This document shows, piece by piece, positions 13,465 through 63,464 of a stretch of DNA of 64,000 nt (positions are counted from its first letter, which is position 1; each line of letters starts with the position of its first letter). Source of the stretch: Octopus sinensis. Lineage: Eukaryota. The notes below the pieces were generated by a model that worked only from the letters and a program-made list of their open reading frames with translations, searched no databases and was not told where the DNA came from. Location: the NCBI RefSeq assembly GCF_006345805.1, contig NC_042999.1, positions 57,226,001 to 57,290,000 of the forward strand. The letters run 5' to 3'. Position numbers and translations under genes: made by a program.

Positions 13465-14107
13465 CCGTGGTTCTCAACCACTTTTTTCTTTTGCCTATGG
13501 GATTCTTTGATTCTTATTTTACTCAACATGACATCCATAGCCATTCGATGTTTAAATACTAATCCTATAATATTTTCATAATTGAATATCATTAGAAATT
13601 GTATAAAAATATTGTTGGAGCAGGCATGGCTGTGTGGTAAGAAGCTTGCTTCCTAACCACATGGTTCCAGGTTCAGTCCATTGCGTAGCACTTTGGGAAA
13701 ATGTCTTCTATTATAGCCTTGGGTCGACCAAAGCCTTGTGAGTGGACGGAAGACGGAAACTGAAAGAAGCCCGTCGTATATACATATGTATGTATATCTA
13801 TGTGTCTGTCTTTCTGTGAATGTTCCCGCCCCCCACCTCCGCTTGACAATCAGTGTTGGGATGTTTGCATTCCTGTAACTTAGCGGTTCGATAGAGTAAG
13901 TACCAGGCCTAAAGAACAAACGGTGCTGAGTTCGATTAATTCGACTAAAAATTCAAGGCGATGCTCCCACACGACCGCAGTCTAAAGACTGAAACGAATA
14001 AAGTATAAAAGTTAAATATTATATGTAACTTAGGAGTATAACCAGCTTAACAACAAAATGTTAAATGAACCCCCAAGGGACATATGGACCTCAGTTGAGA
14101 ATCAGCG
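13465..14107. mobile_element. Non-autonomous hAT/Charlie MITE containing a SINE
   Basis: TIRs CCGTGGTTCTCAAC / GTTGAGAATCAGCG; left flank GTCTAGAC (Charlie NTCTAGAN target); interior homologous to 20285-21110. Confidence 0.75.
13617..14010 (+). mobile_element. tRNA-derived SINE family 1
   Basis: GGAGCAGGCATGGCTGTGTGGTAAG...GGTTCAGTCC head; body matches other copies. Confidence 0.85.
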
Positions 14108-16941: not shown

Positions 16942-17406
16942 CATACTCTGCTGTCTGAAACATAAGTCATACTCTGCACTCTTAAACATAAGTCATACTC
17001 TGCTGTCTTAAACATAAGTCATACTCTGCTGTCTCAAACATAAGTCATACTCTGCTGTCTCAAACATAATCATACTCTGCTGTCTGAAACATAAGTCATA
17101 CTCTGCTGTCTCAAACATAAGTCATACTCTGCTGTCTCAAACATAAGTCATACTCTGCTGTCTCAAACATAAGTCATACTCTGCTGTCTCAAACATAAGT
17201 CATACTCTGCTGTCTTAAACATAAGTCATACTCTGCTGTCTTAAACATAAGTCATACTCTGCTGTCTCAAACATAAGTCATACTCTGCTGTCTCAAACAT
17301 AAGTCATACTCTGCTGTCTTAAACATAAGTCATACTCTGCTGTCTTAAACATAAGTCATACTCTGCTGTCTTAAACATACGTCATACTCTGCTGTCTCAA
17401 ACATAA
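16942..17406. repeat. 26-bp minisatellite, ~18 copies (CATACTCTGCTGTCTCAAACATAAGT)
   Basis: Head-to-tail, near-identical units with no spacers. Confidence 0.95.
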
Positions 17407-17887: not shown

Positions 17888-19755
17888 AATACAGGGAAAA
17901 AACGGGTAGGGTAGGAGTAAGCAGCAGAAGATGGAGAAGGAAGAAACAACAGGCCGCATACCCCCAGAACAAAGAGTGTGCTCAGCCACGCCCCGAGGTC
18001 ATGACCGTGATGGCGTTGCTGCGGAGAATGGCGAAGGACACTTGCCGCAGCAGCCACTCAATTTCGCGGGATTCATTTCTCAGACGAGCTGCAGTTATGT
18101 CGATTTGGGTAAGACAGGAAAAAATGGAAGAAATCAGCTCGTCAGATATTAGCTACACTGAGGTGTCCGATTCTGAGCAGTCGGACATTCCGTGGGCGAA
18201 CAGAAATGAAAGAAGCTACGTAAGAGTGTCTAAGGTGTCAGACTGTAGGGTAAATTTGAGAGAATGGAAGAAGTACTCCAAAATAATGAAAAAGGACAGA
18301 ACAAAGGTAGAAGTAACCGCGTCAATGGAGATAATTGATAAAATAGCGAGATGTACGGTAGTGTATAAAACACACTCAGTGGCAGAAGGAAGAATCAAAG
18401 AGATGACCACGACCCAAGTGGAGAAGGTATAAAGGCACGTATGGAAGGATATAAAGTATTTAACAAGAGGCAATAAATACGGTACAATTAAAGTCCAATT
18501 TAATGATGTAGGCAGTGCAAGTTTAAACTCGTCAATAATATTGAAGAACGAGGACGTAGCGTTGTTGCCAATATGTGGTGGTAAGAGTGCTATAAAGGTC
18601 AACGTAGTGGGAATTTGCCCCCCCCCCACCCGGGCGTCGACGCAGCCTGGACAATAGCTGCAATCTTGCTTGGTAACGAGGAATAGATGGAGGTTCTCCA
18701 GGTCACCAAAACGGAAACAAGGAACTGGAAAGGACAATCCCTAAATATGGTGACATGGGGAACGAACGATATAATAGAAGAGCTACCGAAGACAATAGTG
18801 TTTGGAGACACAACAATGGTAGTCAGGGTAGAGGGCAGGATACCCAGGTGCTACAAGTGTGGCCAGAAAGGTCACATTAGAGCAAACTGCCCTCTACAAG
18901 GAAAAAAAAGGAAGAACCAGTAAAAGAAAAGGAGGAAACAATGCCACCACCAGCAGAAACAGAAGAAGCAAGTGGAACAGAAGATGAATGGGTGACACCA
19001 GGAAAGAAAAGGAAGAGAAAAAGGAGGAACCCAGGTAAATAAATACTGAAACCTACCCCACCCAACTCCCTGAACCTACCCGCCCCCTCCAACACTGAAC
19101 CTACCCGCTCCCCTCCAGCACGAAAACAAACACAATCGGACACAAGTAATTCAACCTCCCCTACCCTGGAAAAAGGAAGAAAGGAACCTACGTAATAATG
19201 TACAATAACACAAATAAAAAATTGTGTGAAGAGATAAAAAAGTTGGAAAAACATTAGAGCGGTGGACACTCGCAGGTTCGATTACGTGCAAGGGTGGCAT
19301 TGCTGCCTGTTGTTGGACGAGAACCAAAGGGAGAAAACTTTTTAATTTAAAAAAAGGATATAAAATATGGCAAGTCGATCTAGACATTCAAAATCTGCCA
19401 GAGAATATGGAGTACATGTTCTTACTGAAGGAGTATGGAGTAGACATTTTGGAAGGCTCCGGGTTCGAAAAGAAAAAAGAACAGAGGTAAAAGGAAGTCA
19501 CTCAGAGGCGGGGCTGAGAAAACTTCATTCCATTTCTCATTTTCATTTTATCATTCATTATACGCTTTTTCTTTTATTTGTTGTGTCCCCACATGTCTTT
19601 GTGTTGTCCCCTCTGCGTTGGCCCCTTGTGGGCGATAAAGAAACAGGGCTGCAGTTATGCCGATTTTGCGGAGGAAATCGACAATGCGAGGTTCGAGAAC
19701 ACCTGAGGTCTCGACGGCGACTGGCACAAACTGATAACGGCTGATCAGGCCCCTT
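17888..19755 (-). mobile_element. 5'-truncated CRE-like (RLE-type) non-LTR retrotransposon, split by an insertion
   Basis: Joining 19667-19750 to 17982-18106 gives YQFVPVAVETSGVLEPRIVDFLRKIGITAARLRNESREIEWLLRQVSFAILRSNAITVMTSGRG*, the typical CRE-clade RLE C-terminus (FxPxAxETxG...QRxSxAIxRGNA). Confidence 0.8.
18107..19647 (+). mobile_element. ORF1-only non-autonomous Tx1/L1-type retroelement (HAL1-like), decayed
   Basis: 19-bp TSD GCTGCAGTTATG(T/C)CGATTT (18088-18106, 19648-19666). ATG at 18124. ORF1 homology including VEGRIPRCYKCGQKGHIRANC zinc knuckle. No ORF2. 3' tail TCCCCTCTGCGTTGGCCCCTTGTGGGCGATAAAGAAA like the Tx1 tail. Confidence 0.8.
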
Positions 19756-20284
19756 GTTTAGCGGCAGTTCTTCCGACTCTCTACGTTCTGAATTCAAATT
19801 TCATCGATATTAACTTCGCTTTCAACCTCCTGGGGCCGATAGAATAAAATTACAGCCAAGCACTGAGGTCAGTTTAATTGATTCTCCTTACCCATTTTCT
19901 TGCCTTATGTCAAAATTTGAAATAATCATTAACAAATACACTACATACATACATACATACATACATACATACATACATACATAAAAAGGCCGATCATGAG
20001 ATTTTGCATCCGAACTTCCTCTCCAAGTCGCAAGCCTAAGTAAGATTTTCGTGGAAAAACAGCAGTTTCCGGTGTCTACAAATCTGTCCTCTCCCTACTA
20101 CTAATAATGTCCAAGGGATAAGGCCGCCACCTTATGGGCAATACAGTTTGGTATCAGTACTGTCGCATATATTGCCATCAAAATACAAAGAGCTGGGACA
20201 GATACCGTAATGTATTTCGCTCGATGTTCTAACAGTTCTGCCACTCCACCAGCCTAAATCGCTACTTTTCTATTGCCTTTAAAC

Positions 20285-28711: not shown

Positions 28712-29074
28712 AAGGCAGCGAGCCGGCAGAAACGTTAGCACGCCGGGCAAAATGCTTAGCAGTATTTCGTCTGCCCCTACGTTCTGAGTTCAAATTCCGC
28801 CGAGGTCGACTTTGCCTTTCATACTTTCGGGGTCGATAAATTAAATACCAGTTACGCACTGGGGTTTATGTAATCGACTTAATCCGTTTGTCTGTCCTTC
28901 TTTGTCTCCTCTGTGTTTAGCCCTTATGGGTAGTAAAGAAACAAGTATTTCGTCTGTTATTACGTTCTGAGTTCAACCTCCGCAGAGGTCGACTTTATCT
29001 TTCATACGCACTGGGGTCGATGTCCCTGTTTGTTCCCTCTGTGTTTAGGCCTTTGTGGGAAATAAAGAAATAAG
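28712..29074 (+). mobile_element. tRNA-derived SINE family 2, dimeric form
   Basis: Exact 17-bp TSD AATAGCTTGGTGTGCTT (28695-28711, 29075-29091); B-box-like GAGTTCAAATTCC; body and tail duplicated. Confidence 0.9.
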
Positions 29075-33404: not shown

Positions 33405-33814
33405 TCTTATTTCTTTATTGTCTACAAGGGGCTACACACTGAGGGAACAAACGACAGACAAACGGATTAAGTCGATTATATCGATCCCAGTGCGTAACTG
33501 GTACATATTTAATCGATCCCGAAAAGCACGAAAGGAAAAGTCGACCTTGGCGGAATTTGAACTCAGAACGTAGCGGCAGACGAAATACCCATTTCTTTAT
33601 TACCCACAAGGAGCTAAACATAGAAGGGACAAACAAGGACAGACAAACGGATTAAGTCGATTACATCGACCCCAGTGCGTAACTGGTACTTAATTTATCG
33701 ACCCTGAAAAGATGAAAGGCAAAGTCGACCTCGGCGGAATTTGAACTCAGAACGTAACGGCAGACGAAATACCGCAAAGCATTTCGCCCGGCGTGCTAAC
33801 GTTTCTGCCAGCTC
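33405..33814 (-). mobile_element. tRNA-derived SINE family 2, dimeric form
   Basis: Same monomer/second-unit junction as 28712-29074. Further monomers at ~31800-32215, 32770-32980, 53230-53415, 54240-54436, 61775-61985 and 63165-63310. Confidence 0.9.
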
Positions 33815-34330
33815 TGTCTGGACAGCTGCGAACACCTGTTTTTGCCTCAATAGGCAGATGCTTAGACATACAAAAAGATCTAGTACAGAGAGACAACAGG
33901 GTAACGCCGTTAGTTGGAGAGGTTTGAAAGGTGAAAGGGGAGGGTAAAGTGTAGTGTCAGAAAGAAATAGGGGACGCTAAGCTAAGAGAAGATAATATGA
34001 GTGAGTTAAAGCACTTGTGAACATGACAGGAGTGAACACGTAGAAGACAAAGAGACAATTGAGAAACAAAAAGCCAAAACTGAAAAATGAAAGAATTGAA
34101 AGAATTGAAAATATGGAAAAAAATGACTAAAAGTTGAGATAGTGTGAAAGGGTGAGATTTTAATAGATTACATGAACTGTAAAGAGACCCTCGGAAATCG
34201 TTTAAAATTCTAGAAAGTTTTTCAGAAAATTTCAAAAATTTCTCAAAATTTTTCAAAACTTTCCCCAAAAGTCTCTGGGACAATACAAAAATTGTCACGG
34301 TCTGACGGTTTTAAGATAGATAGATAGATA

Positions 34331-34613
34331 ACTTTCTTTATGGGCCACACAAGGCTGAACACAGAGGGGACAAATACAAATGTAGAGCTATTTTTTTCGA
34401 AGACGGAAAAGAAAAAGGAAAAATAGGAAACAAATGTAAAATTCCGATCAAAAGGGATCGGAAAAAAAAGGCGATCAAAAGGGATCGTGTATCACAGAAA
34501 AAATTTTATTAAAAAGTAAGAAACAAGATTAGGTTCATCCGTGGAAAGAAAAGCCTACAGAAAAGACCACGGTAACCTCGGGCAGAGAGAAAATAAACAC
34601 ATGAGAACAAAGT

Positions 34614-36645: not shown

Positions 36646-36844
36646 GAATGACGTGTTGTCACCTCGGCTCCGAAGGTAATCGTTTATTTTGACTATTTAT
36701 AGCCCAATTTTTGTGTACATTTTTGTAAATAAGTTGTGTAAGGCACCCAACTTTCGTTTGAGTGCTTTTCCAAGGGAGGAATTCGCCCCTAGGGGCAGTT
36801 TCAACCCCATTTCATTTCTGTAATTTTCTTCTCGACATTAGAAA

Positions 36845-38680
36845 ATGTCAAGAAATTTTATTGTAGAACGCTGGTCGCGTTCTTTTATTGACCAGCATTT
36901 TCCTAGTTTGGAAGCACTAGGAGAAAAAAAGAACGTACACACACCAAGTGCAAACATGAATATCGGTGAAATGAAAGCTGCAACCACGTGCGGTAACAGC
37001 CCTGTCACCACCGCCACCACCACCACTAACAACAGCAACCACGAGACTAATACTGCTACCACCACCACCACCTCCACCACCACCACCACCACCACTACCA
37101 CGACCAACATAAATGATAAAAATAAAACTCACACGAAAACTATTGACAAAAACAACAGCAACAACAAGAACAACAATAAAAATGAACTATCTAATAGTGA
37201 AGATGTTAATACAAAAAAATCAACAACAGTAAATTTCGCTGACACTCTTCGCCAGAAGAAGGAAATTGTAACATTTACAAATGAAGAGCTCATAGAAACA
37301 AGAGCTCTCTTTACAACCCGTGGACAAGATTTAGTGCTGCATACACCTCAACACATAAAGCAAGAAATAGAAAATAAGACAATTATAAATAAAATTATTA
37401 GAAAAAACAAAAAACTAAATGAACAGATTACAAAAACTGATGTAGAAAAATGCTTAAAAAACATAATGAAAAAAAAAGAATATATAAACTGGGGTCCCCA
37501 GTTTAACACAGTAGTGGTCCGCTTCCCTAACCAGGAAGTGGCAAAAGCTCACTCTACTGAGTCTCTGGGAAATGATGAAATCATCATGGTCCCATACTAT
37601 AAAAACCAGAGAGTGAGTCGAATCACTATTAAAAATGTACCTCCCGAGCTTCCTAACAAATGGATAACAGGGGCAATCTGTTACCATTTAAAAAATATCA
37701 ACATTTTGGAGACCGCCGTGTACCCTGGCGGCATTTGGGGTGGGAAGACAATAGTGGTGACCATACAGATTGAGGGGGCCTCTATCGAGAGCCTACCGGA
37801 TAAGATCCACTTGGAAAATGTGGCAGAAGGCAAAAAGCCTAGATGCTACAAATGTGGCAGCCCCGAACATTTAATTGCCAAGTGCGATCTGGTACAGAAA
37901 AAACAAGAAAGAACAAATCAGAAAACAAATAAAATCCCTTTGTTGCCAACACCAACACCAACACACTCAATTATAGAACAATGCCAAAAAAAAAACAACA
38001 AACCAGCAAACAAATCCCAACAACATCACCAAGAAAAGAAACAGTACCAACACAATCACCGTTGACTTCACAACCAATTAAACATGTTGAATCAACAAAA
38101 AATAGACCAACACCCACACCCAGGATGACAATTAAAAAGACAGAAAACAACACAAACACCGCACAAAACATCAACAATTTATACAAGCATACATAGTAAT
38201 GCAAATGCTTTGCCTCTACCCCATACTGATACGTCGGACGACGAAAGTTCGACGGAATTGCAAATAGCCACAGGGGGTAAAAGAAAAAGATCCAAAAAAT
38301 CCACCAAACAAGGAAGTAAAGCAGGGAGACATCTAACACAGGACAACATCCCCCTAGACAATCAAAAAAGTAATGAACCAGTAAAACCACACACACAACT
38401 AACTGCAATAGACACAGACAATAAAGAATTAATGGACTACATCACATCCAACATGGTCATCTGTGAAGATGACTTTAAGACAAACAATCATCCGCACACC
38501 ACACCACGGAAACATCAGAATTTTACACATAACACAAGCACAACACTACATACTGAAAACAATATTTCCGAATGCGGTAGGCGGGTATCAACGATACCTG
38601 TCGAAAAAACTATACAAACACCTCATCAAAAACAATACAATAGAAGAGGAAAAAATGAAACTTTTAAAATGAGTAAGTGA
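36845..38680 (+). pseudogene. Tx1 ORF1 (gag-like, CCHC zinc knuckle), frameshifted
   Basis: AEGKKPRCYKCGSPEHLIAKC; collinear with ORF1 of copy B; frameshifts and stops after ~37990. Confidence 0.85.
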
Positions 38681-38737
38681 CCTCCCTTCTTGCTTCTTGT
38701 CTCTTCTAATGTAGTGTGTAAAACACAATTTTCGTAA

Positions 38738-41700
38738 ATGTCAAGTATGCTTAAATTAGGTTGTGTGAAGGCGCGTGGCTTGGCGTCGGCTTGGAAGCAA
38801 GGTTACCTTCTAAACGACATCAAGTCACTGGACGTGGATATAGTAGCTATCAGTGAAACCAGACTCAGTAAGCCGCGGGCCCTCGAGTCCATGTTTGGCA
38901 ATCAATTTGACATTTATTTTTCTCCCTGTCTGCCGAACATGGGTGGTGGAGGTACTGCGGTGCTTTTTCGAAAGAGTCTAAAGGTAAAAGTAAGAGCAAT
39001 ATTCCTAGACCCGGAGGGTAGGCTGGTTGTCTTGGACGTGGATGGCAGAAATGGGTGTGCATTCCGTCTGATGGCAGTTTATGCACCGTCCTTAACGGGT
39101 CGGGCGGATTTCTTCAGACGTCTAGAGGTTTTCCTGGGTACGTCTAGACCTTTACTGTTAGTAGGGGATTGGAACGCTACCTTGGACACGCATCTAGATT
39201 ATGTGGGAAGGGATAGGAATAGAATGGGGTGTAAGAGCCTCAAAGACCTGCTCAGACGTTTTCATTTGTCTGACAGGTTCCGACTCGACCATCCGAACGT
39301 GCCAACGTGGACTTGGACAAACCGCGTCGGATCGTCGAGATCTTATCTAGATAGAATTCTATGCAGGACAGCGGATAGGGATAGTGTAGGATGTCCACAA
39401 TTTAAAATAGTCAGCTACACAGATCACAAATTTGTTACGTGTACGCTCGACTTAGATAAAACACATAGGCAGGGTCCCGGTTACTGGAAACTGAACACGT
39501 CGCTGTTAGCGCGACAGGTTTACAGGAACCGGATTAGCGAGTTAATTAAGAGGACGCTGACGGGAGCGGTCGTTAACAACCGCTGGTGGTACGCCTTGAG
39601 AATGACAATAAAATCGGAATCAATTAGGTTTAGCAAGGAATTAGCGATAGAACGAAATAGAGTAGAGGGAGACTTGGTTAAGAAACTAGAAGAGGCACTT
39701 ACCACTGGCAGCGCAACCAACGTGCTGGCTGCGAGGATGGCCCTCGACCAACACCTCAACGCCAAGCACGAAGGTTGCGTCGTCAGAGCTAAAATGCGTG
39801 CCTTAAGGAAGGAAGGGATCGAAGCTGCGCGAGAGGCCCGGGTAGCGGAGGCGCAGCGTGGCAACAGAGCCACCATTCGGTCTCTAATAGATCAACAGGG
39901 ATGCAGTTTACTCGAACCCGAAAGGATGTGTGAGGCCTTTCAACAGCACTTTGCTCGACTGTTTGGTGCGAGTGGTGGGTCGGAACGCGGGATGGATTTC
40001 AGTGCCTACCTGACCGACCTGCCGCGGCTCTCGGCAAGAGAAGCGGAGTGTTGTGAAAGTCCCATCACAGCCACTGACGTGTGGGATGCGATGGCGGGCT
40101 GCGCGAGGGATAAGTCGCCTGGATTGGATGGTTTACCCTACGAGCTGTATTGTCGAATGCCAGACTTGTTTGGCGACCTCTTGGCATCAGTCTACTGCAA
40201 CTGGCAACAAAACGGGAGAATCCCCGTTTCGTGAGCCGAGGTGCAGTGACGTTGCTGAAGAAAGACCCAAACAAGGGGAATTTTATAGATAATTTCAGGC
40301 CCATCACTCTGCTCAACGCAGATTTGAAAATTTTGGCCAAAGTAATAGCCGAGAGGTTGGCGCTTGTCATTGGTAAACTGGTCGACAGGGCGCAAACATG
40401 CGCCGTGCCGGGCAGAACCATACATGACAACCTCCATCTGATGCGCTACATTGTGGACAGGGTAGTTAATGATCCTGGCATGGGTGGGGCGCTGATAAAT
40501 TTGGATCAGTCTAAAGCCTTCGATAGGGTCGACCATCGGTACTTGGCGGCCGTCCTCAGGGCGGCTGGCTTCGGTCCCGTCTTCCGCGGTTGGATCGCTG
40601 CCTTGTATAGCGGCAGCCGATCGGTGATTCGGGTGAACGGTCACCTGTCGAAACCGTTTGACATCACGCGTTCGGTCCGTCAGGGGTGTCCACTGTCGGC
40701 GCTTCTGTATGTATTGACTCTCGAGCCGCTACTGCGGAAGCTGGCGACACTGAGGGGCATCCCACGGGAACTGGGTTGCGGGACGAGCGTGTCGGCATAT
40801 GCGGACGATGTCACCGTCATAGTGTCGAGCGACAAACACATCAAGATGATAGGCGAGACACTAAGAAAATACGAAACGGTGACGGGAGCAAAGATTAACC
40901 CGGAAAAGTCAGTGGGTTTGCTACTCGGCACCTGGAGAAGCAAGCCCATGCCGTCCGACTGCGGCTCAGTAGTGGGACGCTGGACGGACGGACCGGTTAA
41001 ATTGCTCGGGGTCTGGTTCAGTCCGGACCTCCAAATGGATAAGAACTGGGACGAGATCACGAGTAGAGTGGTCGCTCTCAGCCAAACATGGGCCGAGAGA
41101 AAGCTGTCTCTAAAAGGCCGGGCGGAGGTGGCGAACGCGTACATCGCATCCGTCATCGATTACCGCCTGACCGTCGTACCTTGTCCCGACGCCACCATCA
41201 CCAAACTGGAACGCATACTCTTCCGCTTCCTGTGGAAGGGTGGCGTTCCGATGGTGAGGAAGTCCATTTGCTGTCAACATCCGTTGAATGGAGGACTGGG
41301 CATGTCGTGGTTGATGATGCGCAGGCATGCGCTGAGACTGCGACATCTCTGGAAATTCATCGACGACGGTGAACAGGTGTGGGCGCCGTTTGTGAGGCGC
41401 GACTTCCCGCAGCTCGTCTCACTGACCGAACTGCAAACGTGGATCAAAAAGAGACCGAAACTGGGCGATTGGCACCGAGAGTGTCGCCAAGCTCTACAGC
41501 AGCTCTGCCGACCGGGGTCAAACTTGTGCAACTTACAAACGACTAAAGCGTTCTATAGAGGACTAGTGGAGGGGAGGTCCGACGACACACTCGGGGCAAA
41601 CCTGGGCGTCGACGAGGAATTCCTAACCCGCCTGTTCAGGACGACGTTCGGGCTGGGGCCTATGGATAACTTCCAGAAATCCCTGGCTTGGCAGTGCTAT

Positions 41701-42186
41701 CGAGACGCACTACCTGTTCGAGAGAAGAGCTACAGACACGGTTCGAAAACCATCACCGGACCGACCTGCCCGAGATGCGGTCAGAGCGACGAAACCGTTC
41801 TGCACGCACCCGTGCAGTGTCCAGATATTTCAGAGCTGTGGTCCTTCGTCGAACAGCTGTTGTCACGTGTAGGTCGGGCTCGCCTATCGGCCGAGTCTAT
41901 CGTGAATATTGTTCCACCACCTTCCTTTAAACGGGAAGGGAAAACGGTTTTCGTTACGCTGATGGCTATGGCGAAAGAATGTGTGTGATGGACGCGTTTG
42001 AAAGGACTGCAAACAAACACCTTCCTCTCTGGTCAGTCTCTCGTCAACTTTTTCAAGTACCACTTGAAAAGGAGGATGAGAATAGAGAGGAAGGCTTTGT
42101 CGAACGAATGTTTTAATAAAAAGTGGGTAAAAGTGGCAAAAATGGTCAGTATGAAAGACAACACTATTTTAAGCATAAATCTGTAA
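38738..42186 (+). pseudogene. Tx1 ORF2 (APE endonuclease, reverse transcriptase, zf-RVT), disrupted
   Basis: GDWNA/TDH APE motifs, KSPGLDG, FRPITLLN, QGCPLS, YADD, CPRC...H...C. Frameshift at ~40225 and premature TGA at 41986-41988. Confidence 0.92.
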
Positions 42187-43135
42187 CCAAAAGAGACAAC
42201 GAGAAGTAAGGCGACTTACTCATGTGTTCTTTTTCGAATTGTCTGAGGTGACCTTGGTCTTTTTTGTAGGTTTTTCTTTCCAAGGCTACACCTAAACTGT
42301 GAACCTTATATATATATATATATATTGCTTTTTTATACACCACACAACCCACAGATCCCTATTGATCAAACGTTTTTTTTTTGTGTGCCCCACCCACCCC
42401 ACCTCGAAAAGAAAAAATTCTACATTGTATTTCGTCCATTTTATTCTGTGTTTAGCCCTGTGTGGCTACAATAGAAAGTTATCTATCTAGCTATCGATCG
42501 GTCTCTCTGTCTGCCTGTCTGTCTGACGATCTGTCCACCTACTTAAGTACGTACGTACCAACCTAACTATCTACCTACCCACCTACCTATCTATATATCT
42601 ATCTATCGATTGATCGAGCTGCCTATGTATCTATGTACCTATTTACCTACATCTATACGTCTATCCATCCACGCATCCATTCAAATATCAATCTGTTAAT
42701 CTATATTCCCATTTAGGTTGATATATACATTGCATGAGAAGTATTTAGACGGTTTCTGTTGCGCTTCTGCGACCGGGTGTTAAGGTTTATTGCTCGGATC
42801 CTCTACGGTTAATCGTTGGAATTTTCCGAGCCCCCTCCCCACGCCCCCCGTTTCTCAGCGCGCTTTTTTTTCGTCATATTCCTTCAATATACGATGCCTT
42901 ACACCTGTTACACATATTTTTTTCCTTTTTTGCCACCTGGGCGTGGATCTATATATTAACCCTTTTACATGTTTAAAACTCCTTGTTGTCAAATATTTTG
43001 TTTTAATCGTTGTGCAAGTTCATTCACTAAAAAACCTGAGAATTATTCACGTAGAATTCCGCCCCTGTATGGGCGAAATTACCAGAAACTTTCAAAACTT
43101 TAGTTGGTTCTTCTTAGCCATTTTTCATTTTGAAA

Positions 43136-45110
43136 ATGGCAACTAGAAACCACGTGGCTAGCCCGCCAGTCATGCAGAACGGTAGCGAAACACTATTGCT
43201 ACCACTAGCTGCTAAACCTCGCAGCTTGAACACCGCTGTCACCACCAACACCACCACCAACAACAACAACAGCAAAACTAACGTCGCGACCGAAGACATT
43301 AACTTAGATTTCCCCCCACTCCCTACACCACTTGTCGATGATAAAAGGACGGAGAAAGGGATTTCAAAAACGAATACAGACGAAAACATGAATGCCAGCA
43401 CCACCACCATCACCACCAACAACAACAACAACGAAATGGGCACAAAGCCGCCTACCAAAGACAACACCGCCAACACCAACACCACTACTACGACTTCAAC
43501 TGCTACAACTAACCCTTCTGCTGCTAACACCGCCAACACCAACACCACTACCACGACTTCAACTGCTACAACTAACCCTTCTGCTGCTAAAACGAATTTT
43601 GCGGATGTGACAAATCAAAAACGAACAATTGGAAAATTCACCACACAGGAAATAAACCGCACAAAAGCACTCTTCACCAAAGAAGGAGACAAATTGCACC
43701 TTCACATTCCACAACACATCGTGGAAAACACACAAAAAAACAATAATTTATAAAGTAATAAACAAGAAAACAAGACGAACAGAAAATGCACCACAGGAAA
43801 AAATTGAAAAATGCCTTCGTCCTGCATGGGACTCCAAGGAATATATCAGTTGGGGAAATAAATTTGGTACAGTCCAAGTACGTTTCCTCAACGAAAATTT
43901 AGCAAAACGTTTTTCCACATTGGAGCTGCATTCGGACGACTTGGTAATGATACAAGTCTATTTAAACAAGAGAGTCACGAAAGTCCAAATAAAAAATGTA
44001 CCACTTGAAGTCGAAACACAATGGTTAGTCTCTGCCATCTGCTTTGAAATGACAGAGACAATGTCAGAGACAAACATCCTTGAACTCGCTGTTCTAGGAG
44101 AGAAAGACTATGTGGGAAAATCAATCGAATTCCTTCTTCATTTGGATGAAGCAGCAAGAGAGAAGATACCCACCACTATAGAACTGCCAGGAGGCTACAA
44201 ACTTTATGTAGTGGTAGAGGGCAGGCGACCACGCTGCTATTTGTGTGGAAGCGAAACACACTTGAAAAAGACGTGCCCAACCACTGCACACCAAGAGCAA
44301 CAACAACAACCACTACCACAACCAAAGCACTCCGGAAAAAAAGCTCTACTACCCACACCACCATCAACACAGAAGACGACAAGAGAAGCACACCAAGCTA
44401 ATCCGTCATCAACCAAAAACCACTCAACACCTGAAAAAATACCAACACCACCAACAACAGCAAGAACCAAAGGAACAGAAAAACAAAGAAAACACACAAA
44501 AACTGACCCCCCATCCCTTATACCGCACTCAACACACACAAACACTCAACAACCAACAACAACGAAAACAACAACACAACCACTTACACAGACATACATA
44601 GAAGCCTACAACATACCCCTACCCCATACTGATTCCTCAGAAATTTCGTCGGAAGACGAAACCAGTGAGGAATGGCAAATAGCTACAAAAAGAAGGAAAA
44701 TAAAGAGCAGAAACACAACCAAACCAAATGCAAACACGAACAAAGCAGGGGGAAAGACATCTCCCGAAGACATTTCAAAACCCAACACAAACAACAGCCA
44801 CACCAACACCACAAAAATATATACAGCAAACATGCTCACAGCTATAGACACCAAAAACACAAATTTGATGGAATACATCCAACCAAAAACAAACATAACA
44901 GAAGATGACATAAAAACAAACAATCACCCATACACAACACCACCAGACCACATCAAAATATTACACATCTCCAAAAGTCTACACCACACACTCAAAGGCA
45001 TTTTCCCCAGTGCGGTTGGTAAATGCCAAAAATATCTCACAAAGAAACTGTACTGGGATCTCCTCGAGGACAAACCAAAGGAGGAGAAAGCAAAAACTTT
45101 CGAGCAGTAA
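43136..45110 (+). CDS. Tx1 ORF1 protein; single frameshift in an A7 run at 43734-43740
   Basis: Both reading-frame segments are open and joined by one homopolymer indel; VEGRRPRCYLCGSETHLKKTC knuckle; T/N/P/K-rich disordered flanks. Confidence 0.8.
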
Positions 45111-45154
45111 GTAACCCTCTGTTCCTTTCACTTGTATTCTAATTCATTAGGATT

Positions 45155-48100
45155 ATGATCAAGATTGATTGTGTAAATGCGCGTGGCTTGGGGTCCCCTT
45201 GGAAACAAGGGTACCTCTTAAATGTCATAAAGTCACATAAGTTAGAAATCATAGCCATAAGTGAGACCAGACTCCACAATCCGCGGGCCCTAAAGACCAT
45301 GTTTGGCGGACAGTTCAACATTTATTTTTCCCCCTGTCTGCCGAGAATGGGCGGTAGTGGCACCGCGGTACTTTTTCGCAAGAGTCTGGATCTCAAAGTA
45401 AGGACAATATTCGTAGACCCGGAAGGTAGACTGGTCGTCCTGGATGTCGACGGCAGCAATGGGTGCGCTTTTCGACTCGTATCAGTCTACGCACCGCCCT
45501 TAACAGGTCGGGCGGATTTCTTTCAACGTCTAGAAGTATTCTTGGGAACGTCTCGTCCTTTACTCTCAGTGGGGGATTGGAATGCTACCTTGGACACGCA
45601 TGTAGACTACGTGGGTAGAGATAGGAATAGACGGGGATGCAAATGCCTCGGAGACCTGCTCAGACGCTTTCAACTGTCTGACAGGTTCCGACTAGACCAC
45701 CCGAATGCGCCAACGTGGACATGGAGCAACCACATCGGGTCGTCGAGATCGTATCTAGATAGGATACTGTGTAGGACAGTAGACAGAGATAGCATAGGAT
45801 GTCCACAATTCCACATAGTCAGCTACACGGATCACAAACTTGTGACATGTACGCTAGACTTAGGTAAGACACTTAGGCAGGGTCCCGGATACTGGAAACT
45901 AAACGCGTCTTTCCCATCGAGACAGGTTTTCAGAGACCGGATTAGCACACTAGTAAAGAGGGCTTTGACGGGAGCCATCATCAACAACAAATGGTGGTTT
46001 GCCCTCAAGAGAGCAGTAAAAGCAGAAGCGATTAGGTACAGCAAAGCACTAGCCATAGATAGAAATAGGGTAGAGGGTGAGGTAGTTAAGAAGCTAGAAG
46101 AGGCAATTAGAAGCGGCATCGCATCCGACGTTTTGGCGGCGAGGTTGGCCCTCGACCAACACTTCAACGCCAAACACGAAGGATGTGCTGTCAGAGCTAG
46201 GATGCGTGCTCTAAGGAACGAAGGTGTTGGAGCCGCGAGAGAGGCCCGGGTGGCAGAGGCGCAACAGGGCAACAAAGCCACCATTCGGTCCCTGGTAGAT
46301 GAACAGGGGCGCGAATTGCTCGAGCCAAGTAAAATGTGTGAGGCCTTTCAGCAGCATTTTTCCCGACTTTTCGGGACGAGTGGAGGGCAAGAACGTAGGG
46401 TGGACTTCAGTGCCTACCTACATAGCCTACCACGACTCTCGACAAGAAAGGCAGGGTGCTGCGAAGGTGCCATCACGGCGGCGGAAGTGCAGGACGCGAT
46501 GGCAGAATGCTCGAGGGACAAATCACCGGGTTTGGATGGTCTACCCTACGAGATTTACAATTGTATGCCAGACTTGTTTGGAGATCTCTTGGCGGCGGTG
46601 TACTGCAACTGGCAGCAAAACGGGAGCATTCCTGGTTTTGTGAGCCGAGGAGCCGTAACACTGCTGAAGAAAGACCTAAACAAGGGAAATGTAATAGATA
46701 ACTTTAGGCCCATCACTCTGCTTAATGCAGACTTGAAAATTTTGGCCAAGGTGCTAGCCAAGAGGTTGGCGCTTGTCATCGAGAAACTGGTCGACAAGGC
46801 GCAAACATGCGCCGTGCCAGGCCGGACCATCCATGACAACCTCCACCCGATGCGCTACATCATAGACAGGGTAGTTAACGAACCTGGCATGGGTGGGGTG
46901 CTGATCAATTTGGATCAATCGAAAGCTTTCGATAGGGTAGACCATCGATACTTGGAGGCGGTCCTCAGAGCGGCTGGCTTCGGTCCCGTCTTCCGCGGCT
47001 GGATAGCCGCTTTGTACAGAGGCATCCGTTCGGTAATTCGCGTGAATGGACATCTATCGAGACCCTTCGACATCGCACGTTCGGTCCGTCAGGGATGCCC
47101 CCTCTCGTCGCTTCTATACGTATTGACTCTCGAGCCATTATTGCGGAAGCTGGCAACTTTGAGGGGCATCCCGCGAGAACTGGGATGCGGGACGAGCGTG
47201 TCTGCATACGCGGATGACGTCACCGTCATAGTGTCTAGCCACAAGCACATCGAGCAGGTCGGCGAGACACTGAAAAACTACGAAGCGGTGACAGGAGTGA
47301 AAATCAACCGTGAAAAGTCAGTGGGCTTGCGACTAGGAACCTGGAGAAGCAAGCCCATGCCGTCCACCAGCGCCTCCGTCATGGGACGCTGGACCGACGG
47401 CCCGGTTGAGTTGCTCGGGGTCTGGTTTGGTCCGGACCTCCAAGTGGAGAAGAACTGGAACGAGATAACGAGTAGGGTGGTCACTCTCGCCCGGCAATGG
47501 GCCGAGAGGAAACTGTCCCTAAAAGGTCGGGCGGAGGTGGCGAACACGTACATCGCGTCCGTCATCTACTACCGCCTGACCGTCGTACCTTGTCCCGACC
47601 CTACCATCACCAAACTACAACGCATTCTCTTTCGCCTCTTATGGAAAGGATGCGTCCCGATGGTCAGGCGATCCATTTGCTGTCAACACCCGTTAAAAGG
47701 AGGGCTGGGCATGCCGTGGTTGATGATGCGCAGACACGCGCTGAGACTGCGACATCTCTGGCTCTATGTAGACGACGGTGAACAGGTGTGGTCGCCGTTT
47801 GTGAGGCACGCTTTCCCGCAGCTCGTCTCCATGGCCGAACTGCAGTCGTGGATCAAAAAGAGGCCGAGGAAGGGCAAATGGCACCGCGAGTGTCGCGTTG
47901 CTCTCAAGCAACTCTGCCGTCCTGGGTCGACCTTGAGTGACTTCAACACAACCAAAGCATTCTATAGGAGATTAGTGGAGGGGAGGTACGACGACGAGCT
48001 CGGGGCGAACCTGGACGTCGACGAGGAGTATCTGACCCGCCTGTTCAGGACGACTTTCGGGCCAGGGCCCATGGACAACTTCCAGAGATCCCTGGCCTGG

Positions 48101-48592
48101 CAGTGTTACCGAGAAGCGCTACCCGTTCGGGATAAGCTCTACAGACACGGCTCGAGAAACACGGGGCCGACCTGCCCGAGATGCGGTCAGAGCGACGAAA
48201 CCGTTCTGCACGCACTCGTGCAGTGTCCAACAATTTCCGACCTGTGGGCTTGTGTCGAACAACTGCTGTCACGTGTGGGACGAGTCGGTTTATCAGCTGA
48301 GTCTATCGTCAATATAGTCACGCCTCGTTCCTTCAAACGGGAAGGAAGAGCTATTTTCATCATCCTTGTGGCTATGGCGAAAGAATGTATCTGGTGGACG
48401 CGTCTGAAAGGATTGGAGACAAATACTTTCCTCTCTGGTCAATCTCTCATCAACTTCTTCAAGTACCACTTGAAAAGGAAAGTGAGAGTAGAGAGGCAAG
48501 TTTTGTCTAGCGAATGTTTTAAAAAAAGATGGGTGAATGTAGCAAGGATGGCACGTATGAATGACGAAGCCACCTTGAGCATAATCCTATGA
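45155..48592 (+). CDS. Tx1 ORF2 polyprotein (APE endonuclease-RT-zinc finger), intact 1145 aa
   Basis: Uninterrupted ORF with NARGL, SET, GDWNA, LDRI and TDH (APE); YADD (RT); CPRCGQSDETVLHALVQC. Confidence 0.95.
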   Translation: MIKIDCVNARGLGSPWKQGYLLNVIKSHKLEIIAISETRLHNPRALKTMFGGQFNIYFSPCLPRMGGSGTAVLFRKSLDLKVRTIFVDPEGRLVVLDVDGSNGCAFRLVSVYAPPLTGRADFFQRLEVFLGTSRPLLSVGDWNATLDTHVDYVGRDRNRRGCKCLGDLLRRFQLSDRFRLDHPNAPTWTWSNHIGSSRSYLDRILCRTVDRDSIGCPQFHIVSYTDHKLVTCTLDLGKTLRQGPGYWKLNASFPSRQVFRDRISTLVKRALTGAIINNKWWFALKRAVKAEAIRYSKALAIDRNRVEGEVVKKLEEAIRSGIASDVLAARLALDQHFNAKHEGCAVRARMRALRNEGVGAAREARVAEAQQGNKATIRSLVDEQGRELLEPSKMCEAFQQHFSRLFGTSGGQERRVDFSAYLHSLPRLSTRKAGCCEGAITAAEVQDAMAECSRDKSPGLDGLPYEIYNCMPDLFGDLLAAVYCNWQQNGSIPGFVSRGAVTLLKKDLNKGNVIDNFRPITLLNADLKILAKVLAKRLALVIEKLVDKAQTCAVPGRTIHDNLHPMRYIIDRVVNEPGMGGVLINLDQSKAFDRVDHRYLEAVLRAAGFGPVFRGWIAALYRGIRSVIRVNGHLSRPFDIARSVRQGCPLSSLLYVLTLEPLLRKLATLRGIPRELGCGTSVSAYADDVTVIVSSHKHIEQVGETLKNYEAVTGVKINREKSVGLRLGTWRSKPMPSTSASVMGRWTDGPVELLGVWFGPDLQVEKNWNEITSRVVTLARQWAERKLSLKGRAEVANTYIASVIYYRLTVVPCPDPTITKLQRILFRLLWKGCVPMVRRSICCQHPLKGGLGMPWLMMRRHALRLRHLWLYVDDGEQVWSPFVRHAFPQLVSMAELQSWIKKRPRKGKWHRECRVALKQLCRPGSTLSDFNTTKAFYRRLVEGRYDDELGANLDVDEEYLTRLFRTTFGPGPMDNFQRSLAWQCYREALPVRDKLYRHGSRNTGPTCPRCGQSDETVLHALVQCPTISDLWACVEQLLSRVGRVGLSAESIVNIVTPRSFKREGRAIFIILVAMAKECIWWTRLKGLETNTFLSGQSLINFFKYHLKRKVRVERQVLSSECFKKRWVNVARMARMNDEATLSIIL

Positions 48593-49380: not shown

Positions 49381-49577
49381 TGACCAGAACTCGGGAAACT
49401 TGGTTTAGTGTTCTATGGTCTATGACCAGAACTCGGGAAACTTTGTTGAGTGTTCTACGGTCTATGACCAGAACTCGGGAAACTTGCTTGACTGTTCTAT
49501 GGTCTATGACCAGAAATCGGGAAACTTGGTTGAGTGTTCTATGGTCTATGACCAGAACTTGGGAAACTTGGTTGAGT
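49381..49577. repeat. 42-bp minisatellite, ~4.7 copies
   Basis: Unit TGACCAGAACTCGGGAAACTTGGTTGAGTGTTCTATGGTCTA. Confidence 0.92.
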
Positions 49578-50269
49578 CCTCATCTTATAAAATGTGGCCC
49601 CAGTAGACCCAAATGAAATCGGGTTATATTAACCAAAATATGAAAAGGGGTCTAAATGGGCTGGAAGGGGATTAAAATTTCAAGGAGCGAGTGTTTAGGA
49701 ATTCTCTGTTACATCAAGCTAAAAAATTTGCGCCAGCCTTTTAATCGTCAATGTGTTGCCGTCCATGATAAAGAAGTTTTGAATGCTTGCCAAGGTGAGT
49801 CTACTGTCGTGATAAAGAATCACTTCAAAACTTGGTGTTTACGAATTTTCTTTTACATCAAGTTCAAAATTTTACGCCAGCCGTTAAACTGTCAATACGT
49901 TGTTGTCCGTCGTTAAGAAATGCCAGCCATGGTGACTCTACTATCCTCAGATTCTATCCCTTCAAACTTTGGTTTCCAATATTTTATTATTTTCATTCAG
50001 CTCGCAAGTTCGTCTGTCCCTTTTAAATGTTAGCGTTTTGCTGTCTGCCTTGAAGCAGACCTTTCCGTTGCCACTGCCTGATATTTATGATTGATCTTTC
50101 AAAATATTTTATTTCTCTACTTACTCAAGATCTTTTGTTGTTTATAAATGGGAGAGAGATAGATAAAGATAGAGAGTAAGAGAAAGCGAGGGAGAGTCCG
50201 AGAGAAAGGAAGAGTAAGAGAGTGGGAAAGTGAGAGAGAAAGGAGAAAGAAACAAAGAGGGAGAATCAT

Positions 50270-51530: not shown

Positions 51531-52666
51531 ATGTGTGCATTACGTAGTCGGTCGATTCAGCTGAAAATATGCACACCTATGTTAAAAGTGCTGGCAAGTT
51601 TGCATGACAACTATTTTTTTCCTCAAATGAAAGGCGTCACCTCTAGGACAAAATTCCTCATCTTATAAAATGTGGCCCCAGTAGACCCAAATGAAATCGG
51701 GTTATATTAACCAAAATATGAAAAGGGGTCTAAATGGGCTGGAAGGGGATTAAAATTTCAAGGAGCGGGTGTTTAGGAATTATCTGTTACATCAAGCTAA
51801 AAAATTTGCGCCAGCCTTTTAATCGTCAATGTGTTGCCGTCCATGATAAAGAAGTTTTGAATGCTTGCCAAGGTGAGTCTACTGTCGTGAGAAAGAATCA
51901 CTTCAAAACTTGGTGTTTACGAATTTTCTTTTACATCAAGTTCAAAATTTTACGCCAGCCGTTAAACTGTCAATACGTTGTTGTCCGTCGTTAAGAAATG
52001 CCAGCCATGGTGACTCTACTATTCTCAGATTCTATCCCTTCAAACTTTGGTTTCCAATATTTTATTATTTTCATTCAGCTCGCAAGTTCGTCTGTCCCTT
52101 TTAAATGTTAGCGTTTTGCTGTCTGCCTTGAAGCAGACCTTTCCGTTGCCACTGCCTGATATTTATGATTGATCTTTCAAAATATTTTATTTCTCTACTT
52201 ACTCAAGATCTTCTGTTGTTTATAAATGGGAGAGAGATAGATAAAGATAGAGAGTAAGAGAAAGCGAGGGAGAGTCCGAGAGAAAAGAAAAGTAAGAGAG
52301 TGGGAAAGTGAGAGAGAAAGGAGAGAGAAACAAAGACGGAGAATCATCATCATCATCATCGTTTAACGTCCGTTTTCCGTGCTAGCACGAGTTGGACAGA
52401 GTGCCCAGGGTCTGGGAAGCCAGGAGGCTGCACCAGACTCCAGTCTGATCTGGCAGTGTTTCTACAAGTGGATAACCTTCCTAACGCCAACCACTCTGTG
52501 AGTGTAGTGGGTGCTTTTTTCGTGCCGCCGGTACAGGTGCCAGGGGGGCTCGCAGCAGCAACGATCGGTTGGTGCTTTTTACGTGCTGAAAGGAAGCAAC
52601 AGAAAATAACAACCACACTCTTACCCGCGCGTAGAGTGGGTCACCTTCAGCTAGTATATATATATA

Positions 52667-54228: not shown

Positions 54229-54445
54229 TAGTAGTAATTTTTCCACAAGGGCAGCCTGGGGGAGGAGATTAAGTCGATTACATCAACCCCAATGTTTCAC
54301 TGGTACTTGATTTATCGACCCTGAATGATGAGAGGCAAAGTCGACCTCCACGGAATTTGAACTCAGAACGTAGCGGCAGACGAAATACCACTAAGCATTT
54401 CGCCCGACGTGCTAACGATTCTGCCAGCTCGTCGCTTTAATAATA

Positions 54446-54500
<55 letters not shown>

Positions 54501-55285
54501 CCTTTCTTTATTAGCCACAAGGGCCGACAAAAATAAGATTGGACATTACAAAACATGAAGGACAAAGTGGGGTTTACATAAAGTGTCGTGTAAAAAGTCG
54601 ATAACAGTGAAAAATGCCTAAAAGAGGCAAGCAACTTTGGGCTACTCATGGAGACTCCACGAAAAATCTACAAGCGCCCCGACCACTAGGGCAAGGGCCT
54701 TCTTCTCATCTTTCTCTCTCTCTCTCTTTCTCTCTCTCAGCGTTGGAAACTCAAAAGCGCATGCTCAAAGTAGGCCTGTTGACACGGATTACCTTCGCCA
54801 TAATCATTCACCTTTCAACAAATTTGCTGGAAGTCAACCCTCACTTTCCTTTTCCTATTGTATCTGAAAACGTTGATGAAGGGTAGGCCAAAGAGAAAGT
54901 ATCTGTCCTCAGCTCTTTCAGTCTAGACACCACACATCCTCTTTCATTTCAGCCACGGGACAGATAATAATTGCCTCCCCTTGCAGGCCAAAAGAAGGCG
55001 GCGGGGCAATCCTCATGATGGAATTAGCCGACAAGCGGATACGTCCTATACGTGGCAGCAGGTGTTTGACATAAACCCATATATCAGATATGCTCGGGCA
55101 CTGGACAAGTGCGTACAGAACGGTTTCGTCGCTCTGCGCACATTTCGGGCAGGTCCGACTGACGGTATTTCCGTGCCTGTAGAGTCTATCTCGAACAGAC
55201 AAAGCCACCGGTAGCACTGCCAGGCCAGGGATTTCTGAAAGATATCCAGAGGCCCCAGCCTGAAAGTCCTCCGGAAGAGACTAGC
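54501..55285 (-). mobile_element. 5'-truncated, diverged Tx1 LINE copy within (TAA)n
   Basis: LFRRTFRLGPLDIFQKSLAWQCYR...RTCPKCAQSDETVLYALVQCP; tail GGCCCTTGTGGCTAATAAAGAAAGG; (TAA)n on both sides. Confidence 0.85.
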
Positions 55286-61089: not shown

Positions 61090-63464
61090 AGACATACATA
61101 CACACATATATGCGGAGCTTCTTTTAATTTCCGTCTATCAAATCTACTCACAAGGCTTTGGTCGGCCCGAAGCTATGGTAGACGACACCGTTTGCGCCAC
61201 GCAGTGGGACTGAGCCCCGAACCATGTGATTGGGAATCAAGCCTCTTACCACACAGCTATATATATTCTCAAACGACACAGTCGCACACAGAGACTGATT
61301 CCCGTTTAACCCTTCATAATACACGATAGAAACACACTTTTCTAACCTCCAAAAGCCTGATGCGTATTACACGCAGATACGAAACCAAAATTTCTGCGCG
61401 TTGAGAGTAGCATCTCGGACTCCAGTTCCTCTCTGCGAACATTATTTCGTCAATTGGCAGCGCTGGTGTGCATCGAGAAGAAACAATGGCCTTGAATAAT
61501 CATAGGAGGCTTACTGTAAAACTGAATAACGATAAAGGACACGGAGAGAAGTTTTATGAGCACTTCACTATTCAATTTTTCTTTTCATGTTGCTTTGACA
61601 TCCTACCAGTGGCAGTGTTAGCGCACTCTTGGAAGGATGGCTGCCGTCAACGTCATCGCCTCTGCTGCTGCTGCCACTGCCGTTGTCTGCGTCTCTGCCT
61701 CCACCTCCACCTCCGTCTCCGGCGTTATATAATTTGACAACTTGTCATTACTTTTTACTTTTCAGGTGTAGTAATATCCTTTTCTACTCTAGGCACAAGA
61801 CCCGAAATTTTTGGGGCGGGGGCCAGTCGATTAGATCGATCCCAGTACGCAACTGGTATTTAATTTATCGACATCGAAAGGATGAAAGGCAAAGTCGACT
61901 TCGGCGGAATTTGAACTCAGAACGTAACGGCAGACGGAATACCGCTAAGCATTTTGCCCGGCGTGCTAATGTTTCTGCCAGCTCAAACCGCGCGTTATAT
62001 ATGGATGCATTTTTACTTTTTACTTTTTATATGGAAAAACCTATATTGTATATTATACACGGGCAAATGCGTACAAATAAGCAAACGCAGATTTGAAACG
62101 GTGACAGTACGAGAAATAAGAACCTTGTAGGGGATGCTGAGCGAAAGATTCTTATTTAGAAAATAATGGAAAATATCTTGCCATTCATTTATATTTTCTC
62201 AGCTATTCTACAGACAAATTAAAGACTTTTACCTCAGCCATGATACAGTTCGTTTCACGACTACAAAGTTTCGGGTACGACCCCATGCAACTCACTGGAC
62301 AAGCATCTGTAAAAATACCCTTGGGTTGACCGAAACTTTAGAAGTGAAATATAATTGATGGTATCCGTAAAAAAGAACCCCGTCAGAGGAACAGTTTTCG
62401 TATTCCTAGACAGTAGACGTAAACGATCACTCGATTTAATACCAGCACCTGTAATTACCTATATGTTCTTACTGGGGTTATGCTATTGAAAGGGTTCAGG
62501 CCAGGTTGCCAGCTTGAAGATAACTTCTCTCTTTACTCTCACTGTCTCAGAAGCCTTGAAAATGTCACGGCTGTAACCATTTTTTCTCTGACTGGACATT
62601 ACCGTCTCGAGTCCAAGAACTCAGAGAGCCGCTTACTCTGTTTCCATGACATTAAATGACCGAGACCGTAACATTCTTAATAGGGCGCCAGTCTGTTGTA
62701 GGGTCGCTCATTTACAACTGATTGAACTGGAGCAACGCGAAATGAAGCGTTTTGCGCAAAAAAAAAAAAAAAACACCGCACGGTTCGGGAATCGAATCAC
62801 GATCTTGCGATTGTAACACTCTAATCACAAGGCAACAAGCCCTCACCTTTGTTTAGTTAACTTATAAAAGATAAACAAATGTATCTTAGCAATGTTCTAA
62901 TTATTTCTTGATTTCATTTGTGTAATTCTCTGTTGCTATCAGTACAAACAAATTCATAACAATTCCATAAGGGGACTAGTAGCAAAACAGGATATTTTTT
63001 TTTGTCTTACATTTTTAATGTGTTTATTTATTGCATAGATACACAAAAATATCAGTCTTTTTCGGAGAAATTTTATACTTCACTGGTTCGTCTTTATCGA
63101 CATTTAGAGGATGGAATTCAGGGTTTTCAGTGCAATATTTATTAGGTTTAGTAAATGTCTTGTGGTATTTAGTTCCCATTTCAAATACCACCTAGGCTGA
63201 CATTTCATTTTGCCTTTCTGAGGTTGATGAAATACCTGTCAAGTACTAGAGTCGATGTAATCGAAAATATAGCTCCCACAAAAATTTGCTGGCTTGTCTC
63301 TAAGATATCATTATTGGGGCAGTGGGTGGTAGAAATAGGAGAAAATCAAATAAAATACCTTATGGAACAATTATTGATTATATTCGTCTCCCACAAAGGA
63401 ATGGTATCTGCACTATAATAAAGAAGGCCGCTTATTAATTCATTATGAGTAGGAATAGTTTTAG

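Follow-up and report, generated by a model that had tools for sequence, protein, structure and literature searches.

A probable decayed copy of an ORF1-only, Tx1-type retrotransposon clade in Octopus sinensis

Positions 18088-19666 of a 64,000-nt stretch of Octopus sinensis contig NC_042999.1 (this whole stretch is hereafter called the window) hold an insert that combines a decayed first open reading frame (ORF1) with the 3' tail of a Tx1-type long interspersed nuclear element (LINE), and the question is whether it is an ordinary LINE that has lost its ORF2 or a copy of an element that spreads with ORF1 only. The original prediction, made from the sequence of the window, favored the latter. 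Our results indicate that the insert is very probably a 5'-truncated, decayed copy from an old clade of ORF1-only retrotransposons that lack long terminal repeats (non-LTR), the RNA of which is likely copied with ORF2 protein taken from full-length LINEs of the Tx1 type. L numbers denote loci of the genome, and papers are cited by PubMed Central (PMC) accession.

Structure of the insert and its closest relatives

The insert proved to be bounded as predicted: 1,541 nt (18107-19647) lie between 19-nt repeats that differ by one mismatch, and in eight of eight host paralogues examined both flanks adjoin with one copy of the 19-mer, so that the host repeat is uninterrupted there (features are listed in Table 1). 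The 17 nt that precede the ATG at 18124 had been described as a leader; they are present but represent a 5' truncation rather than the whole 5' untranslated region (UTR), because relatives match 130-180 nt further upstream, and the fuller relatives give a full-length element of ~1.7 kb. ORF1 is interrupted by stop codons in frame at 18430 and 18684 and by several frameshifts. Its homology to Tx1-type ORF1s was borne out by tblastx matches at 37.8 and 43.7-44.3 kb, in the ORF1s of two autonomous copies in the window (A and B); the core is 23% identical to copy A and 27% to copy B. Similarity to ORF2 was looked for inside 18107-19647 and none was found. The Tx1-type tail was substantiated in part, in that a related tail ends copy A (42420-42480) and two Tx1 3' fragments (34330-34410 and 54500-54585, both on the minus strand) but none was seen at copy B in the stretch read. 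Neither the A nor the B tail was picked up when the insert was compared with the window by BLASTN, and that of A was found on reading the element ends.

Of 1,069 candidates from a genome search with the insert, 40 were scored, and these yielded 52 matches. Among these were seven near-full-length copies in a single piece, plus L004 in two pieces, of ~1.5-1.7 kb and with the same ORF1-to-tail layout; the near-full-length copies are 71-84% identical, lie on six contigs and lack ORF2. The 5' ends vary among independent insertions. Individual target-site duplications had also been anticipated, and of 22 loci five have distinct duplications of their own (15-23 nt), five share a mariner site and two are tandem repeats; the chance of a 12-nt exact match in the space searched for duplications is ~1/1,000, as calculated by arithmetic and not from a shuffle control. 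Targets unrelated to one another, each with a separate duplication, are seen for the window copy and for L002, L004, L005 and L007. The ORF1 core of the window copy is 76-79% identical to those of L004 and L002 and at most 41% identical to any full autonomous ORF1, in agreement with the proposal that this ORF1 diverges from those of A and B and is not a simple deletion derivative. L004 itself (L004:3380-4372) has a gag-like ORF (Pfam DUF7083) just downstream of it and apparently lies within an LTR-type element.

The ORF1-only clade and selection on ORF1

To place the sub-family, 150 of 13,373 candidates from an ORF1 protein search were scored, 90 of which were first taken for sequence, and 141 ORF1 units were extracted from these and further loci. 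ORF1 is followed by the tail in 78 units and by ORF2 in 25; the class counts leave out units with fewer than 110 aligned codons. In a first tree, which leaves out units of fewer than 140 codons, unclassed units and 12 near-identical autonomous rows from TC sites, 70 of the 78 ORF1-only rows formed one clade with a support of 99 in the Shimodaira-Hasegawa-like approximate likelihood ratio test (SH-aLRT). The clade received 98/97 in a subset tree and 100/99 after more autonomous families were added, with 22 ORF2-bearing rows outside; the later trees used hand-picked subsets of 41, 63 and 49 rows, and the model was LG+G4 without a mixture model. No full autonomous member was found inside the clade among the 22 ORF2-bearing rows compared. 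Thus, the claim of an independent ORF1-only lineage holds as a well-supported clade, with the correction that the window element is one twig of a large clade and not a lone family.

Longer relatives carrying ORF2 between ORF1 and the tail, which would have pointed to deletion, were looked for and not found. One ORF2-bearing row does fall inside the clade, the second unit of L253, which leads into an ORF1-only 3' UTR before its sequence switches to the ORF2 of a different family at residue 593. At L017, half of a window-type ORF1 is joined to the ORF2 of a TC-microsatellite family whose own ORF1 differs: the first ORF2 piece is 80% identical to that family, and the ORF1 upstream of close relatives of this ORF2, found in two of six, is in its main stretches 65-81% like the TC-microsatellite family and 35-42% like L004. 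Both units are chimeras with unrelated autonomous families.

The nine named relatives are all from octopods, and a protein carrying the species name O. bimaculoides is nested within the clade (support 100/98), so that the branches of the clade likely predate the split of that species; the divergence of O. vulgaris and O. bimaculoides has been dated to 13.3-33.5 million years (PMC13282606). Further ORF1-only lineages lie outside the main clade. A second, very divergent one of ~2 kb occupies the same short interspersed nuclear element (SINE) site as members of the clade (second units at L130, L159, L161, L103 and L122; branch 1.6-1.9), and a third that looks ORF1-only (L245, L255 and the last unit of L253) has relatives that bear the species names O. 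bimaculoides and O. vulgaris.

Between subfamilies, substitution patterns show ORF1 to be under purifying selection. The net ratio of non-synonymous to synonymous substitution rates (dN/dS) was 0.11-0.24 in nine of nine between-group comparisons, as the original prediction had expected (<1), with dS above 2 between deep branches. Variants shared within groups were far more often synonymous than private ones in three groups (Fisher p 6e-6, 2e-4 and 1e-8); in the window and mariner groups together, the ratio of synonymous to non-synonymous variants was 48:35 for shared and 57:144 for private variants (p 6e-6). Young relatives retain an open ORF1, another expectation that was upheld: it is intact with 408 amino acids in L113, L122 and L130 and with ~400 in L090. 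Young intact ORF1-only copies that are 98-99% identical occur on different chromosomes, and 12 full-length matches to L122, itself included, are 88-100% identical. Contigs from two runs that may be RNA and from two others of unstated type cover large parts of L122, with none spanning it, and were not used as evidence.

The ORF1 core of L004 was predicted to consist of tandem RRM-like domains and a knuckle, with a predicted local distance difference test (pLDDT) value of 82.7, and its top fold matches were tandem RRM proteins, the best being IMP3 RRM12 (E 2e-5). A C-terminal domain of ~105 residues, common to most of the ORF1-only clade and present in one longer database protein, was predicted to be ferredoxin-like (best Z 5.2), which is a common arrangement. 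It had no match above 0.86 in the ESM Atlas, and profile comparison with the ends of autonomous ORF1s gave a weak match (probability 3.9%).

An RNA stage is supported by genomic copies that carry A-to-G hyper-edits. Over the 5' 1 kb, 32-35% of A residues read G (132/376 in L170:4100-5300, which is the same place as L083; 125/367 in L082; 125/358 in L268; 106/331 in L025:900-2100), compared with 4-6% in two controls (24/378 and 17/380). The changes are confined to the element's 5' 1 kb, are few after G and many before G, and include edits common to different contigs; we take this neighbor bias to be the pattern left by ADAR.

Several observations weigh against an ORF1-only clade that moves by retrotransposition. 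Every copy of the window's own sub-family is broken, 10 of the 22 loci have no convincing duplication, and 38 of the 141 units remained unclassed. Private variants gave a dN/dS of 0.51-0.68 rather than 1, so that either the counts underestimate the ratio or part of the private changes arose along lineages. An exact search with the 3' tip gave 336 genome matches, and 30 of 30 loci read were the SINE-like repeat and not a LINE. Template modelling (TM) scores to RRM proteins were low, at 0.24-0.42 of the query, probably owing to domain orientation. Finally, ORF2 pieces adjoin two ORF1s of the clade (L017 and the second unit of L253), and an autonomous clade member could be unsampled, given the fraction of candidates scored.

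The last two points are also what would favor reading the ORF1-only copies as repeated, short-lived deletion products of an unsampled autonomous lineage, in which case the selection on ORF1 acted in the parent. We regard this as improbable, since both ORF2 junctions are with other families, the 22 ORF2-bearing rows compared include no full autonomous unit of the clade and the young intact copies are dispersed over chromosomes. That the window insert is a single autonomous Tx1 copy whose ORF2 was deleted after insertion has precedent in internally deleted autonomous copies elsewhere in the genome (L120, L256) and deserves virtually no credence, because eight other copies run from ORF1 to the tail in the same way, several of them within separate duplications, which refutes post-insertion deletion, and because the closest autonomous ORF1 is distant. 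Spread of the family mostly as DNA, as a passenger in mariner transposons or duplicated segments, would account for the common mariner flanks of L009, L012, L019, L027 and L029 and for one hyper-edited version that lies at four places with shared edits. However, the copies with unrelated targets and their own duplications argue against it, as does the finding that one mariner site holds stacked units from more than one sub-family and from an autonomous LINE, with target sequence between them; DNA-level spread thus explains at most part of the mariner-site group and is very unlikely as a general account.

Tails, targets and candidate helpers

We next consider which ORF2 might copy an ORF1-only RNA. 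The final ~45 nt of the insert are common to autonomous Tx1-type families and to an abundant SINE-like repeat, of which they form the last ~45 nt (window 28720-29070, 33409-33814, 54267-54440 and 61825-61984). Several autonomous Tx1-type families with an open ORF2 of 1,128-1,132 residues are found at L241-L260, often in tandem arrays split by repeated target, and young intact ORF1-only copies and intact putative helpers occur side by side. In copy B and L241, Pfam identified ORF2 with APE endonuclease, reverse transcriptase (RT) and zf-RVT domains, a content that does not separate Tx1 from L1. Families with SINE, mariner, TC and TCTA sites were found, and many Tx1 families target transposons or microsatellites (PMC4494074). 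What the Tx1 label draws on is domain content and choice of target rather than an RT phylogeny that includes named references.

Target classes differ by sub-family and comprise a tRNA-like SINE, mariner, other repeats and unspecific sites. Two ORF1-only groups insert at one site of the tRNA-like SINE with duplications that are most often 15 nt (10 of 24 units measured; the others 1-19 nt by exact match), and an autonomous Tx1-type family uses the same site, with units stacked in tandem (L113/L151, L148/L152, L122/L158). Neither Rfam nor ARAGORN named this SINE, which we call tRNA-like for motifs that we take to be A and B boxes; copies of it lie near 13639 and 57825 of the window. A different ORF1-only group has its site in common with a different autonomous family, and this site lies just upstream of a mariner transposase (HTH_48, E 4.7e-17). 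Four ORF1-only units (L067, L092, L127, L135) end before one common target sequence. At L170:5580-6030 and L082, the mariner-site duplication is followed by a 230-nt leader that runs straight into the start of ORF2 without an ORF1, and this may be a deleted or an ORF2-only unit.

To compare tails, the last 26 nt were scored, with one to four tips per helper family. The two SINE-site groups have tips that match the SINE-site LINE with scores of 12.3 and 14.6, compared with no more than 7.0 for any of seven others. The tip of the window sub-family scored 16.3, 15.8 and 15.1 to three autonomous families, 6.0 to copy A and -0.1 to the SINE-site LINE. Since copy A scored so far below another Tx1-type family, copies A and B are unlikely to be helpers of the window element; its likeliest helpers, going by tip similarity, are L241-like, AATTTC-site or L244-like autonomous families, which the score does not distinguish. 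The tip of the mariner-site group scored 14.0 to its presumed helper and 13.8 and 13.3 to others.

The tail, target and duplication pattern point to mobilization in trans by a partner ORF2. By analogy with established LINE biology, the element would be transcribed from its own 5' UTR, and the ORF1 protein, with its two predicted RRM-like domains and knuckle, may coat its own RNA, which would explain continued selection on ORF1. A helper ORF2 would then bind the 3' tail, nick the target and prime reverse transcription, leaving duplications of 13-23 nt. The target would be set by the endonuclease of the helper, so that sub-families with different tips would land in different repeats; the endonuclease has been described as the main determinant of target (PMC4494074).

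In the ORF1 tree, neither SINE-site group joins the SINE-site LINE (approximately unbiased (AU) test, p 0.034 and 0.019), and a single clade made up of both groups is rejected (AU p 0.0003), with the caution that the groups were defined once a first tree had been seen. Because these groups are apart by ORF1 yet carry the tip of the SINE-site LINE, at least two changes of the tip fall on the ORF1 tree, and helper switching by change of the 3' tip would be the simplest reading. In its broadest form, it holds that a single ORF1-only lineage has been a host-switching Tx1 parasite for tens of millions of years, with ORF1 kept under selection and the last ~25 nt swapped to recruit other helper ORF2s, thereby changing the target to the tRNA-like SINE twice, to mariner, to other repeats or to unspecific sites; in our judgment, this statement is evenly balanced between true and false. 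The family may be just as real if the match of tip and target reflects drift, convergence or gene conversion in one broad helper pool instead of discrete switches, an account that competes with helper switching and not with the existence of an ORF1-only clade. The homology of all compared Tx1-type tails, the near-equal scores of the mariner-site tip and the modest AU values against grouping with the SINE-site LINE are in its favor, whereas the much higher tip scores of both SINE-site groups to the SINE-site LINE than to any other and their rejection as one clade, which requires at least two tip changes, are not. We consider a broad helper pool a serious possibility, somewhat short of probable.

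Relation to known systems and genomic context

LINEs that are non-autonomous but retain ORF1 have been described as bipartite systems, namely HeT-A (Jockey), HAL1 (L1) and Ag-Sponge (CR1) (PMC5786205), and HAL1 is a non-autonomous LINE derivative that encodes ORF1p alone (PMC5753468). The octopus family shares with this type the possession of ORF1 only, independent insertions, an ORF1 kept in source elements and the 3' end of an autonomous LINE. As with HAL1, which arose several times in mammals, there are several ORF1-only lineages in octopus. Unlike HAL1, which derives from the L1 clade, the octopus family has an ORF1 of the RRM-RRM-knuckle type, a sequence-specific tail and not poly(A), and target-specific sub-families; its ORF1 gave no match to the L1 ORF1 Pfam family and has a CCHC knuckle instead, so that it does not qualify as HAL1 proper. 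The octopus element thus works like HAL1 but is not HAL1. HeT-A and Ag-Sponge belong to other LINE clades. HeT-A forms head-to-tail arrays with its autonomous partner, whereas the octopus arrays are short and dispersed and arise by repeated insertion into a regenerated target within SINE, mariner or other repeats, not at telomeres.

Among Tx1 families, crocodilian Tx1-Mar with SINEU, Tx1L in Tx1D, Kibi and Koshi are aimed at mariner, another transposon or microsatellites (PMC4494074). Tx1-Mar and SINEU resemble the octopus system in that a non-autonomous rider uses the same target, with tandem insertions around the duplication (PMC4494074), but the rider there is a non-coding SINE, while the octopus rider codes for ORF1 and one clade has several targets. 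No mention of a tRNA-like SINE as the target of a Tx1-type LINE was found in the part of PMC4494074 consulted. Pairs of SINEs and LINEs with a common 3' tail are similar as well, and the octopus SINE-like repeat uses the same tail; the difference is that the ORF1-only rider keeps a protein under purifying selection. No ORF1-only Tx1 element was found in the literature searched, which comprised parts of main texts (including PMC13282606, PMC11203168, PMC4758252 and PMC9115989); Repbase, Dfam and Bao and Jurka 2010 lie outside it and may hold such entries.

ORF1-only LINEs are few (PMC5786205), and why ORF1 is kept while SINEs manage without it is a question that this genome is well placed to address, as its ORF1-only clade is deep and under selection and comes with young members that are intact, with matching putative helpers that are also intact and with precisely defined target sites. 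Such a system allows direct tests of whether ORF1 is required in cis and whether nothing but the 3' tip determines helper and target. For annotation, octopus entries named 'truncated Tx1' or 'uncharacterized CCHC protein' should be treated with caution, as they include a distinct element class.

Table 1. Features of the insert, its host repeat and the autonomous copies, in window coordinates
Feature	Position	Strand	Remarks
Host repeat, downstream coding piece	17990..18106	-	holds the C-terminal end of a retroelement-like ORF that has decayed; CRE name unconfirmed
Left target-site duplication, 19 nt	18088..18106	+	single copy in 8/8 host paralogues
5' UTR remnant, final 17 nt	18107..18123	+	5'-truncated; ~150-195 nt in fuller copies
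Decayed ORF1	18124..19490	+	tandem RRM-like core (fold predicted for sister copy L004), CCHC knuckle, Lys/Glu/Pro-rich linker, C-terminal alpha/beta domain
CCHC zinc knuckle	18846..18893	+	Pfam PF00098 zf-CCHC, E 6.6e-7
C-terminal ORF1 domain, ~105 residues	19150..19490	+	three frame pieces; profile matches at 19150, 19230 and 19238
3' UTR and LINE-type tail	19491..19647	+	
Right target-site duplication	19648..19666	+	
Host repeat, upstream coding piece	19648..19760	-	128 matches among 150 scored
Autonomous copy A	36842..42480	+	ORF1, ORF2, related tail, TCTA-microsatellite flanks; distant relative
Autonomous copy B	43118..48592	+	ORF2 with endonuclease, RT, zf-RVT; distant relative

The host repeat had been called a CRE element, and this name was not confirmed. 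It has no Pfam family and no database relative, and no open frame longer than 218 residues was found among its 128 matches; its motifs have a likeness to those of the CRE clade. Translated separately, the minus-strand flanks read ...FLRKIGITA and ITAARLRNE.... A 26-nt minisatellite of 18 copies (window 16942-17406) lies just upstream of the host repeat, and elsewhere in the window a 575-nt segment is locally duplicated with 99% identity (49577-50151 and 51655-52229).
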